32,000 nt of DNA from an uncultured Alphaproteobacteria bacterium (GTDB lineage Bacteria > Pseudomonadota > Alphaproteobacteria > Rs-D84), in assembly GCA_963931495.1 (NCBI GenBank), contig OZ007020.1, positions 420,001 through 452,000 on the forward strand, written 5' to 3'. The notes beneath the pieces are model-generated. The model did not search any database. It was not told the origin of the DNA and worked only from the letters and a program-made list of their open reading frames with translations. A program made the translations under genes and the position numbers. This document shows positions 1-21,737 of this stretch, one piece after another (within the stretch, counting starts at the first letter, position 1; each line of letters starts with the position of its first letter).

Positions 1-2291
1 GGGACGCATACACCGTGATGGATGATTTGGATTCGGGTTCTGCAAATCCGTTAAGTGGCAAAGAAGGGGATGCGCTGTTTAATGCATCGCACCAACTATG
101 TGCCCAGCAAATGCCCGAATGTAATGAACAGTTAAGTATGCTGTCACTGATGTATCGCCAGCAAATTCGTTCCGATTGCACGGCGTATGAAAACAGTTTG
201 AATCAACAAAAACAAGCCAGCCAACAAAAATTAGCCGCGGCCCAAACGGCGTTACGCCAGGCGTCATATGAACAACTGCAAGCGGCGAATAAGTACGACT
301 TGGGTCAATGTACGGTTGAATTCAAAAACTGTATGATAACAACCGGTGGGTGTGGCGATGACTTTGCCGGGTGTGCAACAGTTGCGGCGTTTGATGCAAC
401 AAATACACGCGGTCGGGCCAGTGATGCAGAAAAATATTCAATCAAAGGCGCTGTTACAGAAATAGAAATTAATGCGTCAACGTACGATATTTTGTTGTCT
501 AAAAAGCCGTTGTGCGAAAGCGTGACTCAGCAATGTGTTAATGTTGCCGATCAAGTTTGGGATACTTTTTTGCGTGATATTGCGCCCCAGGTAAAGTCAG
601 CGGAATTAATTGCCGAAGATAATGCGCGCCAAAATTGCATTGGTAACATATCGTCATGTTTTCAACAGGCGTGTCGTGATACCATGGATCCAAATGATCC
701 AGATGGTTCGTATGATATGTGTCTGACACGGCCAGAAACAATGCTGGACTTATGTACAGTGCCGTTGAATGCATGTGAAATTTCTACGACGTCGGCGGCC
801 GAAGCAGAGGCGTCGCCAATATGGGAATTTGTGGTTGCGCGTTTGCAATCAATGCGTGTGAATTCGTGTACAACGCAATTCAAAGAATGTTTGCAATCCG
901 AAGACAGATGTGGTTCGGATTATACACAGTGCGTTGGACTGGATACAGATACAATCGTGCGGATGTGCCCGTATGACGCGTTGCCCGGATGCCAGCAGGT
1001 TTATGGCAGTAATGAAATTCGCGATGATGCCGTATATGACGAATTATATGAATTCGCCCAGGGAATATTCTTGGGCATAGACAACAATATGTTGGAATAT
1101 TGCCAGTCTGCGTTGGATGAAGCGGTCATAGAAGTTTGCGGTTCAACAGATTCCTGTGACCAGTACATGTTAAATCAAGATGTTGGTACGCGTTCATTGG
1201 ATTACAAAATCTGTGATATCCAGGTTATTGATGGTACGGATATTGCGTATTCAAATTGTCGGACAACGGCATCGCAAATAACAGATGTTGAATTGGGACG
1301 CAATGCAACCGGACAAATTTCACCGTTGGGTGGCGTTATTACAGGTACAATTTATTGGGACAGTGTTGATGTTGACAGCAATGGCAACATTACCCCGGTT
1401 GATGAATATTTCGTAAATGCAGATTTGACAGATGCATCAGATTCAGAAAAAGAAATGGTGGCGTTGGAATTGGGGGCGTTACAGACCAATATAGATATGG
1501 TGTTTGGTATGATTGAATCTGACCCGACCGTACAATTCTGTATGAGTGGCCGTGAAGTTCAGGGTATTAAACCGTATTCTGGGGAAACAAAACCACGGTT
1601 CCCAGAATTAACCAAACAGGTACGTATGCAGATTGCAACATCGGCACTGAATGCCGCGCGGGATAATTATTACCAGCGATATGATGAATTAAATGAACAA
1701 ATGAGCAAAGATAATATTGAAATCGCCGAACGTATTGCCGCGGTCAGTGGTGAAAATGCAAAAGATGTTCGTCGTGAAGCCGCACGCCAGGCATGTGTGA
1801 ACTTGGCAGATATGTCTGGTATGCCAAAGTCAGAGACACCAAAATCACTGGTTGGAACAATTATTGCCGCCGCGGTTATCGCGACATCGGCGGTTCTGAT
1901 TACAGTGTTCAGTGCAGGGATTGGTGGGTTGGTCGGGCTGGCAGCAACAGTTACAGCCAAAAGCGCCATTGTCGCGGCGGCACCAATAGTATATGTGGCC
2001 GCCGGGTCAGCCGGACTGGGGGCGGTCAGTGGATGGATCCAAGGGGCCGCAACGGCGGATTATTCTGGTGCCCAGGTTACAAACGAAGTCAAGGATTTAA
2101 CAGGGTATTTTGAAAATAAGCAATGGAATTACGAAGAAACAATTACAACAGAATTCAATATGGATACTCTGGTTTGTCACAAGTGTGTAAAATCACGTCA
2201 ATGTGCGAAAATAAAAACACCATTGTTTGGCAGCAAGTCTTGCAAGCAATGGGAAGAACCAATTGAGGTTTGTTCAGATATTGAGTTTTAA
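1..2291 (+). CDS. Cysteine-rich exported protein, family member A. The 5' end lies outside the window. It has a C-terminal Gly/Ala-rich hydrophobic anchor.
   Basis: The frame is open from nt 3 to the TAA at 2289-2291. The track ORF 15..2291 starts at an internal GTG and has no signal peptide there. I count about 33 Cys by hand. There are two copies of C-x6-C-x6-C-G-x2-[FY]-x2-C (nt 309-374 and 867-932). The protein is collinear with the gene at 30332 at an offset of about 186 aa. A hydrophobic stretch LVGTIIAAAVIATSAVLITVFSAGIGGLVGLAA...VAAGSAGLGAVSG lies at nt ~1848-2051. A hairpin terminator follows. Confidence 0.85.
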   Translation, partial: DAYTVMDDLDSGSANPLSGKEGDALFNASHQLCAQQMPECNEQLSMLSLMYRQQIRSDCTAYENSLNQQKQASQQKLAAAQTALRQASYEQLQAANKYDLGQCTVEFKNCMITTGGCGDDFAGCATVAAFDATNTRGRASDAEKYSIKGAVTEIEINASTYDILLSKKPLCESVTQQCVNVADQVWDTFLRDIAPQVKSAELIAEDNARQNCIGNISSCFQQACRDTMDPNDPDGSYDMCLTRPETMLDLCTVPLNACEISTTSAAEAEASPIWEFVVARLQSMRVNSCTTQFKECLQSEDRCGSDYTQCVGLDTDTIVRMCPYDALPGCQQVYGSNEIRDDAVYDELYEFAQGIFLGIDNNMLEYCQSALDEAVIEVCGSTDSCDQYMLNQDVGTRSLDYKICDIQVIDGTDIAYSNCRTTASQITDVELGRNATGQISPLGGVITGTIYWDSVDVDSNGNITPVDEYFVNADLTDASDSEKEMVALELGALQTNIDMVFGMIESDPTVQFCMSGREVQGIKPYSGETKPRFPELTKQVRMQIATSALNAARDNYYQRYDELNEQMSKDNIEIAERIAAVSGENAKDVRREAARQACVNLADMSGMPKSETPKSLVGTIIAAAVIATSAVLITVFSAGIGGLVGLAATVTAKSAIVAAAPIVYVAAGSAGLGAVSGWIQGAATADYSGAQVTNEVKDLTGYFENKQWNYEETITTEFNMDTLVCHKCVKSRQCAKIKTPLFGSKSCKQWEEPIEVCSDIEF

Positions 2292-2357: not shown

Positions 2358-3335
2358 TTATTTTATTTCATCAATTGATGTTATGACGCGTATGCCAGAT
2401 TTTTCCCATTCTTGGCGGTGTGTTTCAAAATCCATTATATTCGTTTGGCCCATGTATAATATTGGTTGCACGTTGTTTGCCGCGGCAACTGTGACCAGTG
2501 TTTTAATTGGTGATGGGCGTTGGCCACCGGTTGTGAACCATGTTTCTTCATCGGCAACCCAGAAGTTTGCATCGTCGTGTACGGCAATGGCGTTTTTATC
2601 GGTTAATATTATGTCGTCTTGGGTTGTGTATGCAATGCCTTGTTCGGTCAGATATTTTGTTACACTGTTTTCATTGTTATTGTCATTGATGATGGGGATG
2701 GGGGTGTCATCAAAATTTATTTCCGAGAATACTGGGTTAAATTCCGGCATCATTGTATCAACGTCGTTGTCTGATTCCATTGGAACATCAAAATCGTTTG
2801 GCAATGGTATTTGCCCCACAGGCTGTAATTCGGGTGCCGTGGGTTGTGCCGGGGGCGCGGATGTAATGTTACTGATATCAAATCCAGAACGGGGCAAGGC
2901 CGCAAGGTTGTTTTTTGCACGCGTATACATTGTGCGCATTTCGTGTGGCATGTTTGGTGGAAATTCTGGCGCATGATTTTGTTCTGGAATTTTTTCCGTC
3001 GGCGCCGGTGTATCATTGTTTTTGTCTGTTTGGGGCGCGTCACATGGAACAGGTTCCATAAACTTTGGTATTTTTATCGTAAACAGTGGTGCGTTACGGC
3101 GCGCAATTATTACAGTTGTTGCAACATATAATGGCAGTGCTGATAATATTAACAAACCAAATACAAATCCAGGAAATCCATGCAGTTCTGAACGCGCCAA
3201 GTGAATCCAGTATTCGGTGGAAAACATATTGAAATTAAACATCCAATATAAAATTGCCCACATTGTGAAAATATAAAATACTGTCCATATTAATGGATGC
3301 TTGATGCGTTTGAAAAAATTCAGTACTTTATTCAT
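2358..3335 (-). CDS. Hypothetical membrane protein with two N-terminal TM helices, a Pro-rich acidic linker and a C-terminal globular domain
   Basis: Long ORF. The track start at 3356 is a TTG, so I prefer the ATG at 3335 (MNKVLNFFKR...). Hydrophobic segments are LIWTVFYIFTMWAILYWMF and FVFGLLILSALPLYVATTVII. The linker reads PVPCDAPQTDKNNDTPAPTEKIPEQNHAPEFPP...APPAQPTAPELQPVGQIPLP. I recognise no family. Confidence 0.7.
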   Translation of the reverse strand: MNKVLNFFKRIKHPLIWTVFYIFTMWAILYWMFNFNMFSTEYWIHLARSELHGFPGFVFGLLILSALPLYVATTVIIARRNAPLFTIKIPKFMEPVPCDAPQTDKNNDTPAPTEKIPEQNHAPEFPPNMPHEMRTMYTRAKNNLAALPRSGFDISNITSAPPAQPTAPELQPVGQIPLPNDFDVPMESDNDVDTMMPEFNPVFSEINFDDTPIPIINDNNNENSVTKYLTEQGIAYTTQDDIILTDKNAIAVHDDANFWVADEETWFTTGGQRPSPIKTLVTVAAANNVQPILYMGQTNIMDFETHRQEWEKSGIRVITSIDEIK

Positions 3336-3482: not shown

Positions 3483-5504
3483 ATGCAAAATTTGCTGAAA
3501 ATGTTTGGCGTATCCGTTGTTGGTTTGGGAATCTGTGCGTTCGTTGGGGGCGCGTATGCGGTGGATACCAGTGCTGGGCGTGCGGCATATAATACGGTGC
3601 AATCTGCGCGGGCCGGTGCCACATCCCAGGCGCGTATGCCGACAATGCCGTCTTTGCCAATTAATGCGGTTGGAAATTTGTCCCCGAATGTGTCGGTGGA
3701 TAATGGGAATAATAATGATGATGGCGGTGGAAATGATGGTAACCCGGATATTCCCCCAGAACCAGAATGCCCAGATGGCGGGGTTAAAAATTCTGAATAT
3801 ACAGTGGATGATTGTATGAATGATATTCTGGCATGCATAAACAATGGGGCATTGCCGGGTGGGTTGAACGACATGTTTAACGAAGATCTGCGTAACGCGA
3901 TTGTTAATGGAATGGGACTGTGTGCAACCCAGGTTGACAGATGTATTACAGATGTGCGGCGCGATTGTGAAAATGTATATCGTTCGTCGGCAGATGTCTG
4001 GATTGATTTTAATTCGCGCAAGGTGCAACCGGAATACTATAACTTTGTATTGCGCAAAACGGGCTTGACCCCGAACCAGGCGGAAAATACATGCGAATTG
4101 TTGGACAGAAATGTTTATGGTTCTTCGTTTAATGCGGTGTCAAATTCGGGTACTGTTACCGCAGAATATAATAACCGGGTTGGCGCGTATAACAGCCAAA
4201 ATGGAAATGTGTTGGTTAAAACAACACCCCAAGGCGTCCAGGTTAACAGTAATGACAATTCCGTAGATGGCCAACGTGGGCACTATGCACGATGGGATCC
4301 GACAACTGCAGAATGCTGGTTGCGGGTGGCGGCCTATAACAAGGATACACATATTAAAAACAGTTGGCTGTTCGGTGCCGCTGGGAATGACCAGCCCGCC
4401 GAAGTGTGGCGTCTGGCCGGGGATACGTTTACGTGCAATCGCGATCTGTTCGGATTTTCTTTGATGAATCAAACAAATACCGCGGCCGTTGTTGGTATCG
4501 GTGGTGGTACACTGTTGGGTGTCGGGGTTGGTGCAATTGCCGGACATGGTGAACGTGCGTTTAACTGTGATATCAAAAATCATCGCGATATGTTGATGTC
4601 GGCGTTAAAGCAAAATGATTCTGTGGGCAAGGTGAATAAATATCTGGGGGCCGGTGTTCAATTGTCTGTGATTGATGACACTATGACACGCGAACAATGT
4701 GCGGCGGTTGTTACCCTGTATGATAACGCGGTCAGTAATTCGTTGTTGGTGACAACGGATATATCTGGGACAATGACGTTGGATATCCAGGCGGTTTGTG
4801 CCGCTGGCCAGGCAGAGGCTGATTGCATCAACGCCAATGCACGTGGGTGTGCCGATGCGGGTATAACCACAATTGCGGCGTGCCAAGATTTCTTGTCAGG
4901 GCAATCTTGTGTCAATATGTCGCCGGATGAATGTATTGATTACTTGGTGAATGATTTGGGTGTGAACAGAAATGCGATTACGGTTGAAAGCGTGTCGGAA
5001 ACAACGATGGTCACAACCCAAGAAGCCAGCGATATTCGTGCAATATTTACCAGCGATGTAATTGATTTAATGCAAAATGGCGATGATTCTAATATGGGCA
5101 AGGCAATTGGTATTGGCGCCGCGGCCGGTGCCGGTGCCGGTGGATTGGCCACAGCGATAACGGCATTTGTTGAACGCAGTAATATTAATTGCCGCGTTGG
5201 TGATGGTCTGGCCCAGGTCGGATATGGTAAATCGTATGCGATTGAATCGTTAAAAGATTTCTATGTTAAGTGGAATTTGAATTTACCGGATACTGTATCG
5301 CCGACGGCCACGGTTGTGGACTGTGATTCATGGCGGCGTGCATGTGGCACAATCAAAGATTTGAATCAATGTCCACATGTTCAGATTAATTATCGGCCGG
5401 CCGGGGCGGCGACAACAACACTGATACCATCGGCATGTGCCGTATCGGGCAGTGAATGTATTGAAAACTATCCGGTGGCAAAATCGTTTGGTGCATGTAA
5501 GTAA
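3483..5504 (+). CDS. Cysteine-rich exported protein, family member B, with two internal glycine-zipper segments
   Basis: RBS AAGGGGGAG lies 8 nt upstream of the ATG. Signal peptide MQNLLKMFGVSVVGLGICAFVGGAYA. ARMPTM box at nt 3630-3647. 24 Cys by hand count. Cys units include C-x6-C-x7-C (CATQVDRCITDVRRDC) and a duplicated C-x8-C-x7-C (nt 4797-4934). Glycine zippers are AAVVGIGGGTLLGVGVGAIAG (4479-4550) and GKAIGIGAAAGAGAGGLATAITA (5097-5168). A terminator follows. Confidence 0.9.
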   Translation: MQNLLKMFGVSVVGLGICAFVGGAYAVDTSAGRAAYNTVQSARAGATSQARMPTMPSLPINAVGNLSPNVSVDNGNNNDDGGGNDGNPDIPPEPECPDGGVKNSEYTVDDCMNDILACINNGALPGGLNDMFNEDLRNAIVNGMGLCATQVDRCITDVRRDCENVYRSSADVWIDFNSRKVQPEYYNFVLRKTGLTPNQAENTCELLDRNVYGSSFNAVSNSGTVTAEYNNRVGAYNSQNGNVLVKTTPQGVQVNSNDNSVDGQRGHYARWDPTTAECWLRVAAYNKDTHIKNSWLFGAAGNDQPAEVWRLAGDTFTCNRDLFGFSLMNQTNTAAVVGIGGGTLLGVGVGAIAGHGERAFNCDIKNHRDMLMSALKQNDSVGKVNKYLGAGVQLSVIDDTMTREQCAAVVTLYDNAVSNSLLVTTDISGTMTLDIQAVCAAGQAEADCINANARGCADAGITTIAACQDFLSGQSCVNMSPDECIDYLVNDLGVNRNAITVESVSETTMVTTQEASDIRAIFTSDVIDLMQNGDDSNMGKAIGIGAAAGAGAGGLATAITAFVERSNINCRVGDGLAQVGYGKSYAIESLKDFYVKWNLNLPDTVSPTATVVDCDSWRRACGTIKDLNQCPHVQINYRPAGAATTTLIPSACAVSGSECIENYPVAKSFGACK

Positions 5505-5532
5505 AAAAATCCGCCGCATGGCGGATTTTTTC
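5503..5532. terminator. Bidirectional intrinsic terminator
   Basis: A7 run, ATCCGCC (5509-5515), loop GCAT, GGCGGAT (5520-5526), T5-6 run. Confidence 0.8.
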
Positions 5533-5950
5533 ATCTGTAAATATGGGTGTCATCCGTGGGGCGACGGGGCGCGGAAAGTGGCGTCTATAAATAAATATCA
5601 ATTCATGTAATACGTCGTTTGGGCGTTTATTTCGTTATTTGGACAGATTGTTTGATTTGCTGGAATAGTATTTGTGCAACAGAGTGTATCGCCACTGGTG
5701 CGTTTCCATTGATGGGCAATGTTTATATCTGATACTTGTGTGATGGTGAATGGTTGGTGCGGTTGTGGATAATATGGCATTAAACAGATATGCGTTATTC
5801 TGTTAATTTTTGTTTATAAGTATGTGTTGATAAGCCAATTGTTATTGCAAACCACAAACCGCGGTACAGATTTGGTAAATACAGGGAATAAACAAATACA
5901 GAAATTGCCACTATACCCGGGTGTAAAAGTCGGTGTGCTTATTGATTTTT

Positions 5951-8803
5951 TTATACTTGGCAAACTGTGTTACTGTATTGTATTTCAATATTGCGGCAAT
6001 CTGGTTGGTCACCGATGTCGGGGCATGCCGACGAACCCGCGCCAATTGATGTGATATTATTTGGATTTAATCCGGATTCTATCAGTACGTCACGCACAGC
6101 ATCGGCGCGTTGTTGGGACAGTGGTGTATTGATCGCATCGTTACCTGTTTTGTCTGTATTTCCAATAACGCTGATGCAATAATTTGCATTTGTGCCGGAC
6201 GTTTGTTTTACATCTGTGGCGAAATCTTTTATTATTTTTTCTGCATCGGTGGTCAAGCGACTTTCGTTCACAGCAAACAACTGTGGTGCCGGTATTTGCA
6301 GTCTGTCAATTGGTAACGTGGGATTTTTAACGCACTGTCCGGCCAGATTTATTATATGATTCGGACTGGGGCATGCACATGCCGTTATGTATTCTGGGTT
6401 ATCTGGTGAATATTGCGGTATAAAACCATTGTCACATGTACATGAACAATCAGTTGTATCAAAGCGAATGTTTGCCGCCGTGATATCACATTCGTATTCT
6501 TGGCATGTTGCAATTGGCGCAATACACACGTCGTTATCCATTTCTGTGGTTCCAGCAGGACATTGGCATGTGTTGTTTACAGAAATCTTGTCGCCTGGAC
6601 ATATGTCACATGTATTCGTATTTTTGTTATATGCAGATTTTGTGTCAGAACATACACAATTTGGATATGTTCCGGTTGCATTGGATGGACATTGTGCATC
6701 TGCGTCTTGGTCGGGCAAGATTGCAACCGCGTTTTCCAGTGATTTTAATGGTTCATACTTTGCGATGATGTCATCAGTTAAATTCTGGGGTGATTTTTTG
6801 TTTTCATTTATCGCAATATTGCCAATTATACTGGCCAATGTACCAACCCCAGCCGTTATTAAACCTGTTTGTAATTGTTCCGATGTCGCAGATTGTTGCG
6901 CCGCCCATGCCGCCGCCGCAGGTCCAGTCGGATCAGATAACGCCGCCGCCAATGATACATATACACCATCACCGCGACCCAACGATACATTGTCGTATAA
7001 CCCAGATGTCGCACTGTCTTGTATTATCTCGGATTCTATGCCAGGACTTAATCCCAATGCTTCTTTACGCGTCTTTAAGTCTGATGCCAATGTTATATAT
7101 TCTGTATACAGTGGTAATAACTGGTTCCCCCCAGGTAACGTTATGCCCGTTTCACCACCACTGATGTTGCGACCAGAACCATAGTCACACCGGAATGTTG
7201 CCAGGTATGCCGTCATATCGCGTGTCGCATCATTTGATGCATTCTGTTGCGCCAACGCAGATGCTGTTTGCATTAATCCAATACCTGTTGCACCAATGCC
7301 GGCAGCCCCCAGTATCTTGTTCGCTGTTGATTGTTCTTTGTCACGCATCGCGTCCGCATTCGCCTGTAATTCCGAAATCTGGGCCAACGAATCTTCTTGC
7401 GAAAGAATAGGGGTTATGCATGATTTTTTATCCGGGCTGGGGCTGTATCCATCGGCACAGGTATCAATTATGCATACTTCGGTTCCAGTTGCGGTGTCCC
7501 ATTCACGGTGTGCCGCAATGGCGTTTTCTGGCATTGGGTGACAGTCACCCGCAATTGGAACGCATTTACCGTCACTGACATCAAAACCGGCGTTGCATTC
7601 TGTGGCATGGCACACACCGTTTTTCAATTCGCCATTTGTGGCGTTTTCAATGGCGAAAATTTGTTCTGGGGTACATGAACCTTCGCTGGGGATGCATGCA
7701 GTATCGTTGTCATCAGGCAAGAATCCCTTGGCGCATCGTACAATGCATAATAATTTACCGTTACGTAATTCGTATTTTCCGGAACGGGCGTTCGTTGGTA
7801 ATGTCAGGCAATTATCCCCATCACCCAAACACTTGCTATTTTGTTCATCCGCGATGTATGGTGATTTACACTTGGTCACACGGCATGAAATACCGCCGTT
7901 GGCATTTGTGCGGTATGTGCCGGATTCTGCATGTGGGATTTTTGCAATATCGCTGTCGCTGCACGGGTCGCCCGGCTGGACAGACTGTACGACAACGGCA
8001 TCCAGCATCATATCATCGTCCATGGTCAAAGTTATGGTCCCCACATCTGGTGACGATGATGATACAGATACAAACTGTTGATTATACCCCAGGCCACTGA
8101 TTAATATTTCATCGGTTATACTTGTAACTTCCAGACTGAAATGTCCATTTGCATCAGTTGTTGCATAGTTTGCCAGTCCTGGGACAGATATATCGGCACC
8201 AACCACCGGACCAATGTTATCAACAACCGTACCGGTTACAAACATTGTTGTCGCATTTGATTCCGGTGCAGACGTGGATTCAGACGGCGTTTGTGGAATG
8301 TTCATTAAATCAGCATGTAAATCTGTGTCGGGGGTGTTGAATTCCATGTCTGGAACCTGGATATCATCGTATGAAACGTCAATGTCGTTTGATATTTCTG
8401 GGGCGTCTGGTGTTGTAACTGTTCTGGTGTTCCCGTTACATTCGGCATCAATCATTTCATTTATGAATTGTTCTTCGGCAATAAATTCCAATTGGCCATT
8501 TTGACATTGTTGCGGTTGGCATTGGCGTAATGTTTGTCCCGCCTGGCACGTGTATGGATATGACTGCATACCCAAAGTGCACATAGTGTCCAGATTTTGT
8601 GTCAGTGGTGTATCAAGTTGTTTGTTGAATTCCGAATTTGGATCATTTTTTATTTGATTATATATTTGTTGGTATCGTGGGTTGTTGGCCGGTGCGTCAA
8701 AAGCATATTTTTGCCGAACCCGAATGGCACAATCGTCAATACTGGCCGCGAATGCGGGCAATGTAAACAATGCCACAAAAATTCCGGTCAATATCTTGTT
8801 CAT
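5951..8803 (-). CDS. Large cysteine-rich envelope protein, family member C. Domain order: CarboxypepD_reg-like fold, four tandem 4-Cys repeats, glycine zipper, EGF-like Cys cluster, C-terminal OmpA-like peptidoglycan-binding domain.
   Basis: Signal peptide MNKILTGIFVALFTLPAFA. About 43 Cys. TGTVVDNIGPVVGADISVPGLANYATTDANGHFSLEV (nt 8018-8245) matches the carboxypeptidase-regulatory-like beta-sandwich pattern. Glycine zipper ILGAAGIGATGIGLMQTA at 7253-7318. Cys cluster CPSNATGTYPNCVCS...CDICPGD...CQCPAGT...CSCTCDNGF at 6332-6691. The OmpA_C-like motif set ISVIGNTDKTGNDAINTPLSQQRADAVRDVLIESGL...G.GSSACP...CRNIEIQY lies at 5969-6283. The start is 6 nt after the upstream stop, with AGAAAGG as RBS. 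Confidence 0.9.
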   Translation of the reverse strand: MNKILTGIFVALFTLPAFAASIDDCAIRVRQKYAFDAPANNPRYQQIYNQIKNDPNSEFNKQLDTPLTQNLDTMCTLGMQSYPYTCQAGQTLRQCQPQQCQNGQLEFIAEEQFINEMIDAECNGNTRTVTTPDAPEISNDIDVSYDDIQVPDMEFNTPDTDLHADLMNIPQTPSESTSAPESNATTMFVTGTVVDNIGPVVGADISVPGLANYATTDANGHFSLEVTSITDEILISGLGYNQQFVSVSSSSPDVGTITLTMDDDMMLDAVVVQSVQPGDPCSDSDIAKIPHAESGTYRTNANGGISCRVTKCKSPYIADEQNSKCLGDGDNCLTLPTNARSGKYELRNGKLLCIVRCAKGFLPDDNDTACIPSEGSCTPEQIFAIENATNGELKNGVCHATECNAGFDVSDGKCVPIAGDCHPMPENAIAAHREWDTATGTEVCIIDTCADGYSPSPDKKSCITPILSQEDSLAQISELQANADAMRDKEQSTANKILGAAGIGATGIGLMQTASALAQQNASNDATRDMTAYLATFRCDYGSGRNISGGETGITLPGGNQLLPLYTEYITLASDLKTRKEALGLSPGIESEIIQDSATSGLYDNVSLGRGDGVYVSLAAALSDPTGPAAAAWAAQQSATSEQLQTGLITAGVGTLASIIGNIAINENKKSPQNLTDDIIAKYEPLKSLENAVAILPDQDADAQCPSNATGTYPNCVCSDTKSAYNKNTNTCDICPGDKISVNNTCQCPAGTTEMDNDVCIAPIATCQEYECDITAANIRFDTTDCSCTCDNGFIPQYSPDNPEYITACACPSPNHIINLAGQCVKNPTLPIDRLQIPAPQLFAVNESRLTTDAEKIIKDFATDVKQTSGTNANYCISVIGNTDKTGNDAINTPLSQQRADAVRDVLIESGLNPNNITSIGAGSSACPDIGDQPDCRNIEIQYSNTVCQV
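7415..7963 (-). repeat. Four tandem ~40-45-aa 4-Cys protein repeats inside gene C
   Basis: aa 281-325, 332-370, 377-414 and 421-462. Each follows C-x20-25-(G..)C-x3-4-C-x2-G[FY]/PY-x6-9-C-[ILV]-[PGT]. Examples: NCLTLPTNARSGKYELRNGKLLCIVRCAKGFLPDDNDTACIP, SCTPEQIFAIENATNGELKNGVCHATECNAGFDVSDGKCVP, DCHPMPENAIAAHREWDTATGTEVCIIDTCADGYSPSPDKKSCITP. Confidence 0.8.
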
Positions 8804-8809
8804 GCCTTT

Positions 8810-10177
8810 CTATCTCTGTGCGACGCCACGCTGGGTGGTTGATTGGATATTTGATGTATCGTTGTCTGGCGCGCTGGATGGGGCGACCGCGTCGTTTGAT
8901 GTTGTCGGTGGTAATTCGCCATAGTTTTGTTCGTATTCATCCTGGGCATCTTTCAGGGCGGATTCTGCCTGGTGACGATCAACCGCACGGTCAATTGCCC
9001 CAGATGTTATCGCACCAACGCCAATCCCAAGACCAGAACCCATAATCGCCGCCGTCGCAGATGTTTGTGCACTGGTTAACCGATACGCATTTTCCATAAA
9101 TGTTGTAATATCAATGCCAAACCAATTAGGTGTACAATCAAATGTTGAACCGGCATACGCCTTTTTAGATGCATATAACGTTCCATCTTCGCCCGCATAG
9201 AATTCAACCGTGTATACGCAATCCATTGTGCGTTCGTCCAATGTTGCCCCCAGTGCCATGCAAGTTTCGCGCATTTCGTCGCGTAATTCATATAAACGTT
9301 GTTCGTCACGTTGAACCTGGACTTCGGCATCTTGGCGTAAAATGGCAAAAACATTCATTGCACGGGCGGCCAGACCGCTGTCTTGCTGAATACAATTGTC
9401 AGCGATTGTTTTACATGCCGCAATTGCCGCATCGCCGTCTGATTTGCCCAGACATCCACCAAATGTTGTTCCGCACTGGGTCACAATACAATCATTATAT
9501 GCGTTGCCACAGTCCAGTACGTCATTATATGACGCCAAGCGTGCATTCATATCACGGTCGGCCTTGATTTCGGTGGAAAATAATTTGTATTCTTCGCCAG
9601 TGCATTCGGCATCCATGCGGCACAAATCCATTTTGTTGCCCCATGTGGTATCAGTATCGCCACGACATTGTGTGAAATCTTCGCCACATTTTTCTTGCAT
9701 GCAACGACGCAATGATACATCACATGCATTTTGCCCGGTGGCCAATGCGTTTTGCATATTCTGGGTCGCCGTGTTTGTGGCGTCGGCCGCATCCAGGGCG
9801 GCACGTTGACGTTGAATCATGTCGGCCAATGCCAATGCAGATGTGTCGGTTGTTGATGCCGATGTTGATGACGCGCCCAGTACAGAATCAAACTGGCTTG
9901 ATTTATTTTCAATTATTTCTGTGGGTTCGGTTTCAGATACTGGTTCGGCCGTTTCTGGTTCTGTGGCGTTTTCTGTTGTTTGTGTTGTCGTATTGGTAAC
10001 CGTGGTACGAACACCCGATGCAACACGACCGGATACCGACGGACGGGCCGTGGTTGTGCGTTGGGCAACGGTGGCGGCATCAGCGTATTGTATCATGCCG
10101 ATTATTGTCGCCAGCGCAAATACAGCCCCCATTGGGTGCATCATTTTATGGCAAAGATTTTCAAATGGTCGTTTCAT
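8810..10177 (-). CDS. Cysteine-rich exported protein, family member D, with a C-terminal glycine zipper
   Basis: Signal-like N-terminus ...MGAVFALATIIGMIQYADA. Thr/Arg/Glu-rich low-complexity region. Two C-x6-C-x4-C-G-x2-F-x2-C modules (nt 9665-9724 and 9452-9511). Glycine zipper ATAAIMGSGLGIGVGAITSGAI at 8996-9058. The start is 9 nt after the stop of the upstream gene. Confidence 0.88.
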   Translation of the reverse strand: MKRPFENLCHKMMHPMGAVFALATIIGMIQYADAATVAQRTTTARPSVSGRVASGVRTTVTNTTTQTTENATEPETAEPVSETEPTEIIENKSSQFDSVLGASSTSASTTDTSALALADMIQRQRAALDAADATNTATQNMQNALATGQNACDVSLRRCMQEKCGEDFTQCRGDTDTTWGNKMDLCRMDAECTGEEYKLFSTEIKADRDMNARLASYNDVLDCGNAYNDCIVTQCGTTFGGCLGKSDGDAAIAACKTIADNCIQQDSGLAARAMNVFAILRQDAEVQVQRDEQRLYELRDEMRETCMALGATLDERTMDCVYTVEFYAGEDGTLYASKKAYAGSTFDCTPNWFGIDITTFMENAYRLTSAQTSATAAIMGSGLGIGVGAITSGAIDRAVDRHQAESALKDAQDEYEQNYGELPPTTSNDAVAPSSAPDNDTSNIQSTTQRGVAQR

Positions 10178-10186
10178 TTATGTTCT

Positions 10187-11053
10187 TTAATCCAATAATT
10201 CACATGCCGTGTCATAAAATTCACACAGTTGTGTTGCCGCCGTGCGTTCGGATTCATATCCGTCACCACAGTGGTTGGGCATATTTTGTGCGCACACGGT
10301 TTCAATACATATATTTTTTGCGTTGGCATCTTTGCATCCATTTTGTGCCGATGCCAGGCGTTGTTCGCGTGCATTCTGGTACGCGGTAACAATGTTGTTT
10401 AACAATGTATCGGCGTTTTCAATGGCAAAGTCGCGGTCAGATGTTAAATCTGCGCGTATGTCGGCCAGATATTCATCACATCCCGCAGCAACAACCCCGC
10501 ATTCAGAAAAGAATTTATTAAAATCTGAATCTGTTTCGCATGCCGCCCAGTCTGGACCGCAACGATTCGCATTCACCATACATGCACGAATATCGGTGGA
10601 ACATGATGTCGCACTGGTGGTCTGGGCATTACGCGCCAGTGATGCCGCGTATTGTGCACTGACCCCCGCGGCACGACATGATTGTTCAATTAATTTATCG
10701 TATACATCAGATACGTCGTCCGCCGTGCAACCGTCAACCTTGGAAATACACTGGCGGGCCGCCCATATATAACGCTGGCCCGGGTCGGTTGGCGCGTCAG
10801 CCAGTTCGTCTTCGGTTAATGTGTATCGTGCAGACTGGCCCAAAGACAGACTGCGCATGCCACCGGTTGTTGGCGGGGTGCCGGCACTGGATGTGCCACA
10901 ATATTGACACCGTGCCGCCGGATTAGATGACACATTTATTGCACATACAGAATCCAGGCAACGCGTTAAGTTCATCTGGGAACACGTGGCACCAAGCGCA
11001 AATGACGGGCACAATAACACCCCGACGAAAAAAAATGTAATACGTGTGTTCAT
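10187..11053 (-). CDS. Cysteine-rich exported protein, family member E (compact version, first gene of the operon)
   Basis: Signal peptide MNTRITFFFVGVLLCPSFALGA. 20 Cys in ~266 mature aa. N-terminal knot CSQMNLTRCLDSVCAINVSSNPAARCQYC. Module CSTDIRACMVNANRCGPDWAAC at nt 10538-10603. Confidence 0.88.
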   Translation of the reverse strand: MNTRITFFFVGVLLCPSFALGATCSQMNLTRCLDSVCAINVSSNPAARCQYCGTSSAGTPPTTGGMRSLSLGQSARYTLTEDELADAPTDPGQRYIWAARQCISKVDGCTADDVSDVYDKLIEQSCRAAGVSAQYAASLARNAQTTSATSCSTDIRACMVNANRCGPDWAACETDSDFNKFFSECGVVAAGCDEYLADIRADLTSDRDFAIENADTLLNNIVTAYQNAREQRLASAQNGCKDANAKNICIETVCAQNMPNHCGDGYESERTAATQLCEFYDTACELLD

Positions 11054-11070
11054 TTCTCTCTTTACGCAAA

Positions 11071-11099
11071 ATTATATCAAAAAACATTATAACTTGAAA
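11071..11099 (-). promoter_or_regulatory. Putative promoter of the E-D-C operon (extended -10)
   Basis: On the minus strand: TTTCAA (11099-11094), 17 nt, TGATATAAT (11079-11071). It lies ~18 nt upstream of the ATG at 11053. Confidence 0.45.
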
Positions 11100-11139
11100 G
11101 TAAAAATACATGGGTTAATATAAAAATTGAACTGTATAC

Positions 11140-11168
11140 TTGACAAAATAGTATAATTTGTCTATATT
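11140..11168 (+). promoter_or_regulatory. Putative sigma70-type promoter for the 11201 gene
   Basis: TTGACA (11140-11145), 17 nt, TATATT (11163-11168). RBS AGGA at 11191-11194. Confidence 0.55.
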
Positions 11169-11200
11169 GCTAATACAAGCAAGTTAAAAAAGGAAATGAA

Positions 11201-11899
11201 ATGGCGAATGTTAAAAGAATTTTAGTCAGAACAAGTGCGGGGATTGCCGGTGCTGCGTTACTGGTGTTTGGTATCACGCAATGCAATGGCAAGCGCGATG
11301 AACGTGCGGCCAAAGAATCAGCGCTGCGCAGTGCAAATGAAACGCAAGAACAATATATCAAGGCAGTGCATACGTTACAAGATGCCGCCGTCGCAATTGA
11401 CAGTTTGTTAAAAGATAATGGTGTCCAGGCGGATTCTATTATTGTTCTGAATGATTCAATCCAAGTGTTAAACGATTCGTTGGATTTGACCCAGCGTCAA
11501 TTGATTGATTGCAGAAATTCAAAAAAGAAACCAGTGCGCAAATCACAACCTGGCCAGAAACAGCCAAAACCACAACCGCGCGTTGTTGATACAGTTATGG
11601 CGCCGTCTGGGGTTAATAACGAAACAATAATTGAACTGCGTGACAGTGTGAAAAACGATGGTGATATTGTTGTCGCAAATGGCGATACACGTGGCAATAA
11701 TAAAACGCAAATTACATTGGGCAATGGTGCTGAAAATAATGGTACAATTGTCGTTAACAATGGTGGTAATGTCACAATATATGGTAAAAATGCCACTGAA
11801 AACACGGCGGATACGTTGAAAAACAAGGCACATGCAGATACACTGCGTGCAAAAGTTATATGTGTTTGGACAAAACGTGAACGTTCGTGGACGCGTTAA
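11201..11899 (+). CDS. Hypothetical membrane-anchored or exported protein with a coiled-coil-like segment, a basic Lys/Pro/Gln linker and an Asn/Gly-rich C-terminal repeat region
   Basis: Good RBS. N-terminal hydrophobic segment SAGIAGAALLVFGITQC. LNDSIQVLNDSLD repeat. Basic linker KKKPVRKSQPGQKQPKPQPR. C-terminal region GDIVVANGDTRGNNKTQITLGNGAENNGTIVVNNGGNVTIYGKN. A strong terminator lies downstream. Confidence 0.8.
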   Translation: MANVKRILVRTSAGIAGAALLVFGITQCNGKRDERAAKESALRSANETQEQYIKAVHTLQDAAVAIDSLLKDNGVQADSIIVLNDSIQVLNDSLDLTQRQLIDCRNSKKKPVRKSQPGQKQPKPQPRVVDTVMAPSGVNNETIIELRDSVKNDGDIVVANGDTRGNNKTQITLGNGAENNGTIVVNNGGNVTIYGKNATENTADTLKNKAHADTLRAKVICVWTKRERSWTR

Positions 11900-12024: not shown

Positions 12025-15000
12025 ATGAAATATATCAGAATTTTTCTGTTTGCTTTGTTTTTTGCACCAATGGCGGCGTTTGCGGCAACGCCCAGTAATG
12101 AATTCATGGTTGCGGCACAGTTGCTGTCTGCGGCCAAGAATGCCGATATTCAACAGGTGCAAAATCTTATCAACAGTGGCGCAAATGTTAATTATGTGGA
12201 CAGTACGGGATTGTCACTGGTGTGTACCGCGTTGATGAATAATGATGTACGCGCAGCACAGATATTACAAATGTATGGTGCAGATGCGTCACAGTGTGAC
12301 CGGCAAATCAAACAATACGAATCGCGAAATGTGCCCGAGAGCAGCGGGGGACTGTTCAGCGGACTATCTTCCGCCCAGAGTATTTCATTAGCGGCGGCCG
12401 GGGCCGCCGTTGTCGTAGGTGGGCTGTTTTTATTAACAGACTGGCTGGACCCGGGAAATGAAAATAATAATGGTGGAATATCCGGCGGTGGTGACCGTCC
12501 TGGCCAGGGTGACGGCAGTGGTGGTAATGGTAATAAAACAGAATGGCAGGTTGGGGCAATTCCATATGGCCCGGCAATGCCAGATGCCGAAGCAGAGACA
12601 AAAAATTATACTGCAAATTTGAATCTGTACAGTGATGCAGAGTCGTTCAAAGAAAATTTCACATTAATGACCAAGACATATCGTCAAAATTACTTGTTGA
12701 TGATGCATGGGTATTCGTCGTTTGCACGTGGATATATGGGACAACGCACATTGCGTTATGAAGACAGGTCACCTGTGCCGGCAAGTGTTTTGGGAAACTA
12801 TAATTTGGGACAATGGCAACTGGGCGGCGGTCGGCCGGTTACAGTTGCGCTGGTCACAGAAAATGGTATAAATGCTGCGTCTAAACCCGCTGGTGAAATT
12901 TCAGCAGAAAAAAATTCCTTGGATGACCAATTACTGGTGTGGGCCACAATGAGTGGGGATAAGGTTAATAATACAGATGTTGGAATGTTATCCAGTAAGT
13001 ATTATAACAATGTCATTCAATTGGGAACAGGCGAAGGTGATACGCTAACAAATTCATATACCTATGAAGATGGCACATTGGTTAATAATTTTGACCTGGC
13101 GGGGTTCGGAACGGCGGTAAATAATACATCGGCAACCAATGATGACGATTTGTTGGCCAAGGTTGTCGGTGGCGGTACCAGTGGATATCCAAATGCGGAC
13201 TTTATGGGATTTATGCCAAATGGCCAAATGATGATTTTCCGTACAGGTGATGGAAATGGACTGGTTAATATCGCCAAAGACGAACAATCGGCCACAGGCA
13301 CGTATACCATGGCGGGTGACAGTTTGGCAACAGGGGACACACTGTCATTATTTGGAAAAACATTAACGGTAACCAGAACCGGAAATCAAATAACGGCGGT
13401 TGCGGATGATGAAACAAAGTATACCGGATATATTGGGGCGGACGGGCTGTTGTATATTGACAGTGCCGCCGATGGTGTCATAGACCAGGCATATGAATTG
13501 GCCGATAATAACCTGACCATGGTTAAAAAGGCAGGCAAGATTGATTATTATAATTACAAGGCGTTAATTAATGCCGCGGCGTTGTACAATGCAAATGGGT
13601 TGACCGGTGATTTAGAAGGTGGGCGTTCGCGGCCGTTTATATTGGCAAATGCGTCGGTTATTGAACCACTGCATGATAAATCGTCGGCGACAATTGAAGA
13701 TGTTTTGTCATATGGAAACGATTCGGATTCTTTGTTGTACGGATTTACGACACTGATAAATGAATATTATAACAACAGTGAAACAGATGGTGTAAACGGC
13801 AATGACGATACGCCTGATGTGTACGCGACGGCGTTCTTTAAGGGATTGGGAATGACATATTCGCCACTGGTTATTTTTTCAACCGGGGCGTCAGAGACAG
13901 ATGCAAATTATTCCGGGAAACATTTAGAGGCATCATTTGAAAATTCTGCGCCGTTGGTGTTTGATAATATGGAACATTTGTTTATGTCTGTTGTGCCAGT
14001 ATCTTTGTCTGGGGCTGGGACCGCGAATGTGGAAACAGTCAGTGGTTTTAACCCGTCAAACAGCAAATACCAAGTGTCACAATGGCAAAGTACCAATGGA
14101 ACATCGGATACAACGGATGATGATACTTTTTATATGGGGCGCGTTTGTGGCGTTGCGGGAACGGGCGCGAATGGTGTTGATCCATGGTGTTTTGCCGCCG
14201 CTGGTGTGACAGATGAATTGGCGGTTGCGTCGGCCGCAGGGGCCGCAGGTTCATTAAAGTCCGCGTTTAGTTATATGAGCAGCGAGCAGTTATTCACGTT
14301 GATGGCGTTGACCGCCGATGGGGCATACTTGGGCACGGATACGTCGGGCAACCCGTTTTCAACAGAAGAAAGTTTGATTTCTTATTTACAAGGTATTTAT
14401 CAAATGCCGAACGAATATGAATATCGCTGGAAAGAAGGTGGTGAAAACTATCTGGACGTATTTAAGGAAGTTTTTGGATATGGTGTAATTAACCTGGAAC
14501 GCGCAACAAAGCCGGGAACAAATATATATTTTTATAATGGTACAGATATTGTGTCGGATAATGGCAATGCGTATTGGCGTGCGGCAACAAACACCGTGTT
14601 TCGGCCGTCGTCGGTGTTTGGGGCGCGGGCCGCAACAATCAGTGCGCCATTCTTTGATGTTCTGGAAAGTTTTGATGGTTCAATGACTTTGCCACGTGTG
14701 TGGAAGAATGAATTCTCGTTGGCGGGGGCGTCAGAACGGGGATTGTACATGGGTGACGTGTTGGGCGATTTCAAAACACGTGATTCAGATGCGCCGCGGG
14801 TTCAGTTCGGTAATTTCGGATTTTCTATGGCATTTTCTGAAAAACCGTATGTTGATAATTTGAATGGATTGGACGAATTAAGTATGGATTATTCATTGGG
14901 TAATTGGAATTTTGCCGCCGGTTATCAACGGCACTTTACAGATGGTAATTCACGGTATAACGGAATGTCTAATCCGATTTTGGGATTGGCGTCAAATGTG

Positions 15001-15747
15001 GTTGCGTCTGATGTTGCGTATGGAATGGGACGCTGGTCGTTTGGGGCACGTGCGTATTCGGGGAATATTACAGATGAAACAATGCTGGATAATGATCCGA
15101 CCATTTCGTCACAGTATTTGCCGGCCCGTTTAGGGATGATGCATGGGGTGCAGTCGGATGTTGCATGGAATGGCGATAAGTTCGGATTTACAGCAGCGTT
15201 CGGTGTGGCGCATGAAACGAATACTCTGTTGGGGGCGTTGTCTGGTGGGTTGTTGAATATGGGTAATGGCGATACGTCATATATTGATACAGAATTACGT
15301 TGGGCGCCGATGGATAAACTGAATTTCACACTGCGTTCAACATTTGCGCGGACATCGTCGGATGCCAGTGGTGAATTTATATTGGGAATGTCTGATGTTG
15401 ATTCACGGGCCTTTGCATTCGGAATGGATATTGGTAATTTTAAGTTCAGTGTATCGCAACCATTGGTTGTTACGAATGGATATTTGATGTATCCGTATGC
15501 AGACTATGATATCACCGAAAGTGCCGATGGAAAATATGACTTGGCCATAACAAATACGCATGTTGAACATATGGATTTAAGTGCCCAGCATCGTGAAGTA
15601 CGATTTGTTGGTGAATATCGTCATAACTTTGGCGAATTTACAGATGGGGCCGTTGGATTTATATATCGGGTTAATCCAAATAATACAGATATGTTCGGAA
15701 ACGAAGCGATACTGATGATGAAAATGACACATCGTTTGGGAATATAA
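12025..15747 (+). CDS. Autotransporter-like outer-membrane protein. It has an N-terminal ankyrin repeat region, a hydrophobic/Gly-rich segment, a subtilase (S8, NalP/SphB1-type)-like passenger that looks catalytically degenerate, and a C-terminal beta-barrel region.
   Basis: Signal peptide MKYIRIFLFALFFAPMAAFA. ANK pattern AAKNADIQQVQNLINSGANVNYVDSTGLSLVCTALMNNDVRAAQILQMYGADAS at nt ~12106-12294. Hydrophobic SLAAAGAAVVVGGLFLLTDWL at 12376-12438. S8-autotransporter-like landmarks are RVCG...DPWCFAAAGV (14140-14208) and FGYGVINLERATKPG (~14473-14517). The C-terminal ~300 aa has alternating beta-strand-like sequence (FGFSMAFSEKPY...GFIYRVNP...). Confidence 0.8.
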   Translation: MKYIRIFLFALFFAPMAAFAATPSNEFMVAAQLLSAAKNADIQQVQNLINSGANVNYVDSTGLSLVCTALMNNDVRAAQILQMYGADASQCDRQIKQYESRNVPESSGGLFSGLSSAQSISLAAAGAAVVVGGLFLLTDWLDPGNENNNGGISGGGDRPGQGDGSGGNGNKTEWQVGAIPYGPAMPDAEAETKNYTANLNLYSDAESFKENFTLMTKTYRQNYLLMMHGYSSFARGYMGQRTLRYEDRSPVPASVLGNYNLGQWQLGGGRPVTVALVTENGINAASKPAGEISAEKNSLDDQLLVWATMSGDKVNNTDVGMLSSKYYNNVIQLGTGEGDTLTNSYTYEDGTLVNNFDLAGFGTAVNNTSATNDDDLLAKVVGGGTSGYPNADFMGFMPNGQMMIFRTGDGNGLVNIAKDEQSATGTYTMAGDSLATGDTLSLFGKTLTVTRTGNQITAVADDETKYTGYIGADGLLYIDSAADGVIDQAYELADNNLTMVKKAGKIDYYNYKALINAAALYNANGLTGDLEGGRSRPFILANASVIEPLHDKSSATIEDVLSYGNDSDSLLYGFTTLINEYYNNSETDGVNGNDDTPDVYATAFFKGLGMTYSPLVIFSTGASETDANYSGKHLEASFENSAPLVFDNMEHLFMSVVPVSLSGAGTANVETVSGFNPSNSKYQVSQWQSTNGTSDTTDDDTFYMGRVCGVAGTGANGVDPWCFAAAGVTDELAVASAAGAAGSLKSAFSYMSSEQLFTLMALTADGAYLGTDTSGNPFSTEESLISYLQGIYQMPNEYEYRWKEGGENYLDVFKEVFGYGVINLERATKPGTNIYFYNGTDIVSDNGNAYWRAATNTVFRPSSVFGARAATISAPFFDVLESFDGSMTLPRVWKNEFSLAGASERGLYMGDVLGDFKTRDSDAPRVQFGNFGFSMAFSEKPYVDNLNGLDELSMDYSLGNWNFAAGYQRHFTDGNSRYNGMSNPILGLASNVVASDVAYGMGRWSFGARAYSGNITDETMLDNDPTISSQYLPARLGMMHGVQSDVAWNGDKFGFTAAFGVAHETNTLLGALSGGLLNMGNGDTSYIDTELRWAPMDKLNFTLRSTFARTSSDASGEFILGMSDVDSRAFAFGMDIGNFKFSVSQPLVVTNGYLMYPYADYDITESADGKYDLAITNTHVEHMDLSAQHREVRFVGEYRHNFGEFTDGAVGFIYRVNPNNTDMFGNEAILMMKMTHRLGI

Positions 15748-21560: not shown

Positions 21561-21663
21561 GTTGTCATTATTGCGCGTTTGAATTTTTTTTCCACAGGAA
21601 AGATGTCGGCAAACAGTTTTTAATTGCAAACGTAATAAATGCAATATATAATGCCCAACACAT

Positions 21664-21737
21664 TGGGGCATAGTTTAACGGTAGAACTCCGGACTCTGAC
21701 TCCGTCAGTGTTGGTTCGAATCCAGCTGCCCCAACCA
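21664..21737 (+). tRNA. tRNA-Gln (anticodon CUG)
   Basis: Hand-folded cloverleaf. Acceptor TGGGGCA/TGCCCCA. D-arm GTTT-AACGGTA-GAAC. Anticodon arm CCGGA-CTCTGAC-TCCGT (one C-T mismatch). Variable loop CAGT. T-arm GTTGG-TTCGAAT-CCAGC. Encoded ACCA end. Confidence 0.9.

Follow-up and report, generated by a model that had tools for sequence, protein, structure and literature searches.

A conserved gene cluster for three exported cysteine-rich proteins, the last ending in an OmpA-like peptidoglycan-binding domain, in Rs-D84 Alphaproteobacteria

PorE (PG1058) of the type IX secretion system is a periplasmic protein in which a CarboxypepD_reg-like domain is paired with a C-terminal OmpA-like peptidoglycan anchor, and the chlamydial proteins OmcA, OmcB and MOMP, from a host-dependent diderm with a small genome, are exported cysteine-rich envelope proteins that are thought to be cross-linked by intermolecular disulfides. 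The locus described here, E-D-C, bears comparison with both. It lies in a stretch of 32,000 nucleotides (nt), referred to below as the window, from an uncultured alphaproteobacterium of the Rs-D84 lineage (assembly GCA_963931495.1, contig OZ007020.1, positions 420,001 to 452,000 of the forward strand), and comprises three genes, E, D and C, for proteins of 288, 455 and 950 amino acids (aa) respectively. Judged by sequence criteria the three genes behave as a single conserved transcription unit, being co-directional, with short junctions, an upstream promoter and no internal terminator. Their products are predicted to be Sec-exported and disulfide-rich, and there is in our estimate an even chance that this lineage-specific operon specifies an envelope complex lying on the periplasmic side and tethered to peptidoglycan. 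The order Rs-D84 is characterised by genomes of <1 Mb without respiration and standard transporters, but it keeps the peptidoglycan and rod-shape genes RodA, MreB and MrdA, and its members have been proposed to be obligate symbionts or parasites dependent on contact with other cells (PMC12306168). Nothing was found in the literature on the E, D and C proteins.

The genes and the signals around them are as follows.

10187-11053, minus strand: gene E, open reading frame (ORF) of 288 aa, its product without a Pfam, NCBIfam or PDB relative
8810-10177, minus strand: gene D, ORF of 455 aa
5951-8803, minus strand: gene C, ORF of 950 aa, encoding a multidomain exported protein with the OmpA-like domain last
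11071-11099, minus strand: promoter-like site of E-D-C, with TTTCAA at 11099-11094, a 17-nt spacer and an extended -10 element TG-n-TATAAT at 11079-11071
11054-11063, minus strand: purine-rich ribosome-binding site AAAGAGAGAA, abutting the ATG of E (11053-11051)
8805-8811, minus strand: AGAAAGG, Shine-Dalgarno-like site of C, overlapping the AG of the TAG stop of D (8812-8810)
5504-5531, both strands: perfect palindromic hairpin, AAAAAATCCGCC-atgc-GGCGGATTTTTT, flanked by A and T runs

An earlier reading of this DNA, made from the letters alone (the sequence-only reading), had given the coordinates, lengths and shared minus strand of the three ORFs, together with junction gaps of 9 nt between E and D (10178-10186) and 6 nt between D and C (8804-8809), and all of these were recovered when the sequence was re-read. 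So was the AGAAAGG site, which overlaps the TAG stop of D and ends 1 nt ahead of the ATG of C (at 8803). The promoter that had been proposed upstream of E exists, but its spacing had been miscounted: 17 nt reach TATAAT (11076-11071, with the TG extension at 11079-11078) and not TGATATAAT. The -35 hexamer TTTCAA agrees with the consensus at three of six positions only, and for this reason the site is missing from the list returned by a generic promoter scan. When the region upstream of E was aligned from eight species, the block TTTTTTG(A/G)TATA(A/C)T, which holds the extended -10 element, and the ribosome site AGAGAGAA-ATG were invariant in all eight, while the flanks had diverged. A scan of the sequence gave no inverted repeat at either junction, where the absence of hairpins had already been claimed, and no terminator-like site on the minus strand inside the operon. 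The sole strong hairpin near the operon is that at 5504-5531, some 420 nt beyond the stop codon of C. It is a candidate bidirectional terminator, common to E-D-C, for which this role is putative, and to the convergent gene for B673, a 673-aa cysteine-rich exported protein (3483-5504, plus strand). The converging genes for B673 and C end 446 nt apart (5505-5950), in a stretch without a called gene that has the hairpin at its far end; Rfam found no match in this stretch, and matched nothing but the tRNA. In the equivalent stretch of one relative (L007) small ORFs have been called.

Two alternative gene starts were considered and set aside. A start of C 27 nt later, which is called on other contigs of the same species, is a gene-caller artefact at genes truncated by a contig end, the DNA being identical; and a start of D at an internal methionine (MMHPMG...) was rejected, the longer N-terminus (M-x6-F/L-Y/C...) being conserved across orthologs.

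The gene order was followed in relatives through 80 species-representative loci collected with D, of which 75 could be evaluated for the gene after D, and through seven loci obtained through C homologs. The carriers are metagenome-assembled genomes from the guts of humans, chickens and ruminants, recorded either as Candidatus Enterousia or as uncultured Alphaproteobacteria, and the genomes of the lineage are small (~0.9 Mb). In 79 of the 80 species loci the gene directly ahead of D is E, the lone exception being interrupted by a contig end, and the E-D junction has a median length of 11 nt and never exceeds 28 nt. A co-directional ORF of at least 300 aa begins no more than 300 nt past the stop of D in 63 of the 75 evaluable loci; here the median junction is 17 nt, 48 of the 63 are 30 nt or shorter, and 10 overlap, several of them by 1-4 nt (ATGA/TAATG-type). 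The Pfam OmpA domain terminates 41 of 51 complete C-like ORFs. In the seven loci found through C, genes E (51-77% protein identity) and D (53-70%) precede C (36-54%). Conservation of the three-gene order in relatives had been offered beforehand as a test of the operon: the order is kept across species, with C as its usual but not universal member. Likewise, an OmpA anchor at the end of the operon proved to be usual, but C is missing at the locus in about 8 species and ~20% of C orthologs are OmpA-less. In the loci without C, D directly precedes an ortholog of B673 or genes of the type of the neighbouring 957-aa A protein. The invariant core is formed by E-D; C, the third gene, is usual yet dispensable. 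Together with the tight junctions, the conserved promoter and the lack of internal hairpins, the kept order agrees with the earlier proposal that E-D-C would be transcribed as one unit.

Protein C contains 43 cysteines, and begins with a type I signal peptide ending AFA/AS, without a lipobox. The AlphaFold2 (AF2) model has a mean pLDDT (predicted local distance difference test score) of 66.6, with five confident parts, namely the N-terminal domain, the beta-sandwich, two Cys-rich beta blocks spanning aa 280-465 and aa 705-830, and the OmpA-like domain. From the N- to the C-terminus the features of C are:

8432-8743, minus strand: N-terminal folded domain, aa 21-124, 6 Cys, AF2 pLDDT 75-91
8018-8245, minus strand: CarboxypepD_reg-like beta-sandwich, aa 187-262, by Pfam and AF2
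7418-7963, minus strand: four EGF-like Cys-rich beta modules, aa 281-462, 16 Cys, AF2 beta hairpins with pLDDT ~80-86
6704-7396, minus strand: conserved middle, aa 470-700, predicted to be helical, with Gly/Ala-rich hydrophobic segments at ~aa 495-520 and ~646-665
6332-6691, minus strand: second set of Cys-rich modules, aa 705-824, 16 Cys, CxC type, by AF2
5954-6301, minus strand: OmpA-like peptidoglycan-binding domain, aa 835-950, with the motif GNTD...N..LSQQRADAV

The coordinates that had been proposed for the CarboxypepD_reg-like and OmpA-like domains are right by Pfam. PF00691 (OmpA) matches C at aa 842-926 with an E-value of 1.4e-14 (54.7 bits against a cutoff of 27.2; 57.2 bits for the domain alone); a phmmer search of the PDB with the last 133 aa of C gives alignments to the peptidoglycan-binding domains of OprF, Pal and OmpA in which the G-x-T-D...N-x-x-L-S-x-x-R-A motif is preserved; and the AF2 model, whose pLDDT is 74-93 over aa 835-950, is matched by Foldseek to OmpA, Pal and MotB domains (4rha, 5u1h, 4g4w and 1oap) with E-values of 3e-8 to 3e-6 and target TM-scores of 0.66-0.79. 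In 37 orthologs, residues T883, D884, N892, L895, S896, R899 and A900 are at least 90% conserved. The conserved Asp of G-x-T-D and Arg of L-S-x-x-R-A are, we take it, those that contact diaminopimelate of the stem peptide in the structures of Acinetobacter baumannii OmpA with peptide. The assignment, which a failed profile search had been said to refute, passes at the levels of profile, PDB sequence and fold, and the ending of C in a genuine OmpA-like domain, with its predicted peptidoglycan-binding residues intact, is confirmed by sequence and model alike. The domain carries four cysteines. For the beta-sandwich, PF13715 (CarbopepD_reg_2) matches aa 189-272 with an E-value of 6.9e-12 (45.7 bits, cutoff 32.2), PF13620 scores slightly under its cutoff (31.3 bits against 32.3), and AF2 places seven strands in aa 187-258 with pLDDT ~80-87; the same domain matches the N-terminal extension of SusC/RagA in NCBIfam. 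The EGF-like modules give faint Pfam matches to CPL1-like and cEGF. The peptidoglycan anchor and the beta-sandwich of C are ordinary known domains.

Comparison with described proteins that carry such domains shows how far the likeness extends. With the OmpA_C/Pal/MotB domains (PF00691) the last ~115 aa of C agree in profile, motif and AF2 fold, but here the domain closes a chain of 950 aa and 43 Cys in which there is neither beta-barrel nor lipobox, and for which there is no motor or secretion-system context. The best NCBIfam match of C is to outer-membrane lipoproteins of the YiaD and PA1041 type (NF053611, NF053612), which likewise have a Gly-rich hydrophobic segment and a C-terminal OmpA-like domain and suggest a membrane-to-wall tether; the match to NF053611, however, is confined to the OmpA part and at 61 bits falls far short of the cutoff of 175, and C differs in its type I signal peptide, in being about four times as long, and in lacking both a lipobox and a Pfam glycine-zipper match. 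Identification of C as a YiaD-type glycine-zipper/OmpA lipoprotein was rejected on these grounds: the sub-cutoff score and the absence of lipobox and glycine-zipper domain. With PorE, C has in common the pairing of domains, although the NCBIfam match (NF052230, 27.7 bits against a cutoff of 600) is again to the OmpA part only. C gives no Pfam match to TPR or WD40, has neither TPR nor beta-propeller domains, and lacks a lipid anchor; the organism belongs to the Alphaproteobacteria and not to the Bacteroidota, and no genes for a type IX secretion system lie nearby. C was accordingly rejected as a PorE.

No match to E or D was found in Pfam, and searches of the PDB by sequence with E, D and the middle region of C returned nothing credible. 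Nor were relatives of E and D detected outside the Rs-D84 / Candidatus Enterousia lineage or in the PDB, and both are, by these searches, lineage-restricted orphan families. E has a signal peptide, with predicted cleavage at about ALG/A (aa 21-22), and its mature chain holds 20 invariant cysteines, which include two four-Cys units (aa 151-172 and aa 240-262). In D the order is signal peptide (aa 1-34), Arg-motif and Thr-rich linker, helical Cys-rich core, small beta sheet, Gly-rich hydrophobic segment and hypervariable tail; the AF2 model of D matched no fold in the PDB. Its distinct regions are:

9383-9730, minus strand: helical Cys-rich core, aa 150-265, AF2 pLDDT ~74-84, with four-Cys units at aa 152-171 and 223-242
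8975-9148, minus strand: most conserved block, aa 344-401, with many positions invariant in 51 orthologs, AF2 pLDDT <50
8813-8974, minus strand: hypervariable tail, aa 402-455, Cys-free in this window and ending RGVAQR

The conserved block holds Cys348 in the motif TFDC (codon 9136-9134) and a glycine-zipper-like segment (aa 372-395, AAIMGSGLGIGVGAITSGAI) that is uncharged and conserved, with a hydropathy of 1.5 and GxxxGxxxG spacing at aa 380-388. The tails of D orthologs range from 41 to 534 aa and are hypervariable in their content of modules.

The mature N-terminus of D, ATVAQRTTTARP, is encoded at 10075-10040, and its C-terminus, QRGVAQR, at 8830-8813. Many D orthologs terminate in R-x-V-x-x-R (RGVSSR, RGVATR, RTVSQR and similar), which resembles the motif AAVVQRGTSARP that follows the signal peptide, and in several paralogs the mature chain starts AAV..R. 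These motifs could be a sorting, processing or attachment signal.

The sequence-only reading had taken E, D and C for three members of one family, and this did not hold. C is unrelated to E and D in BLAST, hidden Markov model (HMM) and motif tests: BLAST found no match between C and either of the others, and HMM cross-matches of sub-regions to C were insignificant. The link between E and D is itself weak (BLAST E-value 0.003, hhalign probability 33%). An exhaustive search of 1.84 billion representative proteins with a profile of E returned 66 clusters, nearly all of them E-sized orthologs or fragments, and no D-sized protein, bar one weak match of 33 residues. What E, D and the neighbouring A protein share is a four-Cys unit of ~20 aa, C-x6-8-C-[ILMV]-x3-5-C-[GAS]-x5-7-C, of which E and D contain two copies each, against ~0.001-0.005 expected in shuffled sequences; as the motif was defined after the sequences had been seen, this test is partly post hoc. 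No copy occurs in C. The unit recalls the twin-CX9C and twin-CX3C (CHCH-type) proteins, in that cysteines of E and D fall at i/i+7 on predicted helices in paired units, which suggests helices stapled by disulfides. E and D differ from these in their spacing (C-x6-C-x4-6-C-x6-C) and in being bacterial and exported, and there is neither detectable homology nor a match to a PDB fold. D and B673 have in common a module of TFxC and a Gly-rich segment (37% identity over 78 aa, BLAST E-value 0.005). B673 has Gly-rich hydrophobic segments at aa 333-354 and aa 541-563 and an RMPTM-type N-terminal motif in common with D orthologs, and it adjoins D even in C-less species. Wider homology of the Gly-rich segments and of the N-terminal Arg motif is not claimed, as HMM cross-matches among 12 proteins of the window were marginal (E-values 0.01-0.5).

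Cysteine numbers in the three proteins follow a strict pattern. Mature E has exactly 20 cysteines in 114 of 115 orthologs. D has 16, one of them in the signal peptide, and the 15 that remain are all invariant in 51 orthologs, so that the odd number counted in the sequence-only reading is confirmed; the oddness extends to C. The core of D has exactly 15 cysteines in 113 of 113 orthologs, and the total is odd in 112 of these. Tails of D add 0, 2, 6, 8 or 10 cysteines: 74 of 102 orthologs have cysteine in the tail, and in 73 of the 74 the number is even and the patterns EGF-like. The total in C is odd in 37 of 41 orthologs, and in 33 of the 41 there is one cysteine in the middle with even counts on both flanks; in the window that residue is Cys539 (TFRCDYG, codon 7189-7187), the lone invariant cysteine of the middle region. 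Since the counts in the tails are even but not multiples of four, intramolecular disulfides are favoured over Cys4 metal sites; and if even counts pair within the chain, then one conserved orphan thiol would be left in D and one in C. By elimination, that of D is probably Cys348. The two orphan cysteines are candidates for intermolecular disulfides, whether D-D, D-C or C-C.

The same cysteines might instead be ligands, the helical four-Cys units of E and D binding zinc or Fe-S-like centres, as would suit a strictly anaerobic, non-respiring organism. The recurrence of the units and the 20 cysteines of E, which make five sets of four, speak for this, as does the report that the lineage lacks respiration (PMC12306168), which renders classical re-oxidation by DsbB doubtful. 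Set against these points, the proteins are Sec-exported, the core of D holds 15 cysteines, its tails gain 2, 6 or 10, that is to say pairs and not fours, and the EGF-like beta modules of C are classical disulfide folds. We therefore regard metal binding as improbable, and prefer disulfides.

Two observations link D directly to C. The N-terminal domain of C (aa 23-122) is 41% identical (E-value 1e-22) to the C-terminal tail of the D ortholog P0116, and it resembles the tails of many other D orthologs. This accessory domain stands at the end of D in five species and at the start of C in three species and in the window; it is never present in both, and is absent from the rest. Furthermore, P0076, a protein of 939 aa from two short contigs in public metagenome data, is an in-frame fusion of a complete D, tail included, to the middle and the OmpA end of C, which arose either naturally, by deletion and fusion, or as a chimera of assembly. 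Domain migration and fusion, in the manner of Rosetta-stone proteins, suggest that the tail of D and the N-terminus of C share a location and that the two proteins work jointly. Conservation is highest in aa 344-401 of D and aa 482-700 of C (45-79% by tblastn for the middle of C, with many invariant residues), and yet these segments are the worst modelled by AF2 as monomers (pLDDT ~25-54), as would be expected for elements that oligomerise or are embedded in a membrane.

These data bear also on the simplest alternative, which is that E, D and C are functionally unrelated envelope proteins, brought close together by compaction of a ~0.9-Mb genome; little space separates many of the genes in the window. 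Such a view would accommodate the lack of homology between C and the other two, and the persistence of E-D where C is absent. It is harder to reconcile with an order and spacing kept across dozens of species at 50-77% protein identity, with a single footprinted promoter, with a domain that migrates between D and C and a D::C fusion, or with the layout of orphan cysteine and Gly-rich segment that D and C have in common, and we consider it very improbable.

For the preferred periplasmic complex the following arrangement is proposed. Since E, D and C all begin with typical signal peptides, as read from their sequences, and no recognisable secretion-system signal was found in them, and since the OmpA-like domain must reach the wall, the periplasm would be the default location. 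C would act as the tether, its C-terminal OmpA-like domain binding peptidoglycan non-covalently in the periplasm, while its Gly-rich hydrophobic middle would contact a membrane face or partner subunits. D would be the universally conserved core partner, contributing the helical Cys-rich domain, the glycine-zipper-like segment and the variable tail, the last of these sitting in an oxidising compartment shared with the N-terminus of C; and E would be a soluble partner, fully disulfide-bonded. D and C may associate via their conserved Gly-rich segments, and possibly also via the orphan cysteines. The single unpaired cysteine of D and that of C, each beside a Gly-rich segment, are candidates for intermolecular disulfides, which would join the proteins covalently into a scaffold held to the wall from the periplasmic side of the envelope. 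It is from sequence that we infer the localisation, disulfide bonding, physical association and scaffold or lattice. The chlamydial outer membrane complex offers a functional analogy only to E-D-C: there is no sequence or Pfam relation, the present lineage keeps its rod-shape and peptidoglycan genes, and C has an OmpA-like wall domain; the window does also encode a protein with Chlamydia PMP repeats.

Several results weigh against this proposal. About 10% of species lack C beside D and ~20% of C orthologs lack the OmpA domain, so that wall anchoring is not essential to E and D; the D proteins of C-less species were checked for an anchor domain of their own and none was present. D keeps all 15 core cysteines where C is absent at the locus, and a bond to C is therefore not the sole role of its orphan cysteine. 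The Gly-rich segments match no Pfam glycine-zipper family at an E-value of 1 or below, and the low AF2 confidence over the conserved segments may also be accounted for by shallow alignments (37 and 51 sequences). Finally, the reported lack of respiratory chains in the lineage (PMC12306168) puts in question how a DsbA/DsbB-type system would be re-oxidised.

The hydrophobic segments allow two other placements. In the first, D would be bitopic in the inner membrane, with its N-terminus periplasmic and its tail cytoplasmic, and C would form a helical hairpin, so that the pair would link the cytoplasmic membrane to peptidoglycan in the way of MotB, TssL or YiaD-type anchors. D has indeed one uncharged segment of 20-24 aa followed by the Arg/Lys-containing sequence DRAVDRHQ...K, the loop between the segments of C (aa 530-645) has one cysteine only, and OmpA-like domains do occur on the inner-membrane proteins MotB and TssL, to which there are domain-level NCBIfam matches. 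But the supposed cytoplasmic tail contains cysteine in most D orthologs, in even number and in EGF-like patterns, which argues that it is not cytoplasmic, though aa 372-395 might be read as a transmembrane helix. The tail domain is, moreover, interchangeable with the N-terminus of C that follows the signal peptide, and B673 has many cysteines before, between and after its two equivalent segments. Inner-membrane anchoring has accordingly a very small probability in our view.

The main rival to the periplasmic complex is a surface apparatus that spans the outer membrane. Here the glycine-zipper-like helices of D (one) and of C would cross the outer membrane as oligomeric bundles, the tail of D and the N-terminal half of C would be surface adhesins directed toward a partner cell or host, and the OmpA end of C would hold the wall from inside. 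Hypervariability of the D tail in length and modules is typical of exposed regions; its even-numbered cysteines again indicate that it is not cytoplasmic; D has the GxxxGxxxG spacing; and the operon lies in a conserved island beside a 1240-aa exported protein, with a Pfam-confirmed autotransporter bearing Chlamydia PMP repeats elsewhere in the window. The need for cell contact proposed for Rs-D84 (PMC12306168) would also fit. The difficulties are that C has two hydrophobic segments, which would bring the chain back to the side on which it started, that hydrophobicity is modest and there is no match to a Pfam glycine-zipper family, and that the pairing of CarboxypepD_reg and OmpA domains is known from PorE, which is periplasmic. 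Furthermore, we know of no route that would carry the ~460-aa disulfide-rich N-terminal half of C across the outer membrane. On balance this rival is unlikely. A more ambitious form of it, to our minds a long shot, is that E-D-C, B673, the 957-aa A protein and the 1240-aa protein are the core of an undescribed, lineage-wide envelope or attachment apparatus of gut Alphaproteobacteria that depend obligately on partners, in which the oligomeric glycine-zipper helix of D would cross the outer membrane to display its fast-evolving modular tail, C would staple the assembly to peptidoglycan, and disulfides between orphan cysteines would lock it; such an apparatus would be alpha-helical and unrelated to known secretion systems or adhesins.

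To our knowledge the combination found here is new: an invariant E-D pair, an exact cysteine count, an orphan cysteine in both D and C, and a domain that crosses the boundary between D and C. That two orphan families should be adjacent in 79 of 80 loci, with exact cysteine counts, in so small a genome makes it very likely that they are important. Bacteria of the Rs-D84 / Enterousia group occur widely in the guts of humans and animals; the candidate cross-linking residues Cys348 of D and Cys539 of C, the peptidoglycan anchor and the mobile D/C domain provide entry points to envelope stabilisation, and possibly to partner attachment. Should E-D-C form only a reinforced periplasmic scaffold, it would be a modest addition to the tethers of the OmpA family.

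The wider neighbourhood of the operon is also syntenic in relatives: on one side it is flanked by the divergent genes for the 1240-aa protein and for a 232-aa protein, and on the other by those for B673, for a membrane protein of 325 aa and for the 957-aa A protein. In the intergenic region 11054-11200 a near-consensus promoter TTGACA-17-TATATT (11140-11168, plus strand) points toward the 232-aa and 1240-aa genes, and its two boxes are unchanged in most of the eight aligned species. Given these back-to-back conserved promoters, E-D-C and the divergent pair may be co-regulated. The 232-aa protein (11201-11899, plus strand) has an N-terminal hydrophobic anchor. The 1240-aa exported protein (12025-15747, plus strand) shows weak N-terminal ankyrin matches, contains a second hydrophobic segment (aa 119-138) and gave no Pfam match to an autotransporter domain. 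Both genes lie beside E-D-C in every relative examined. On the other side, the conserved 325-aa hydrophobic protein (2358-3335, minus strand) finds no match in Pfam, and its synteny with the cluster extends to relatives; a 221-aa ORF on the opposite strand (2311-2976, plus) appears to be its shadow. Other exported proteins rich in cysteine and in C-x6-C pairs are encoded at 15-2291 (plus strand), 27307-29820 (minus) and 26504-27235 (minus), the first of these being the 3' part of the 957-aa A gene, cut by the start of the window, and containing the four-Cys unit of E and D. Such lineage-specific cysteine-rich exported proteins take up a large share of the 32-kb window. Two further genes, for a member of the choloylglycine (bile-salt) hydrolase family (20463-21671, minus strand) and for the autotransporter with the Chlamydia PMP repeat (21970-25311, plus strand), fit a gut, host- or partner-associated life.

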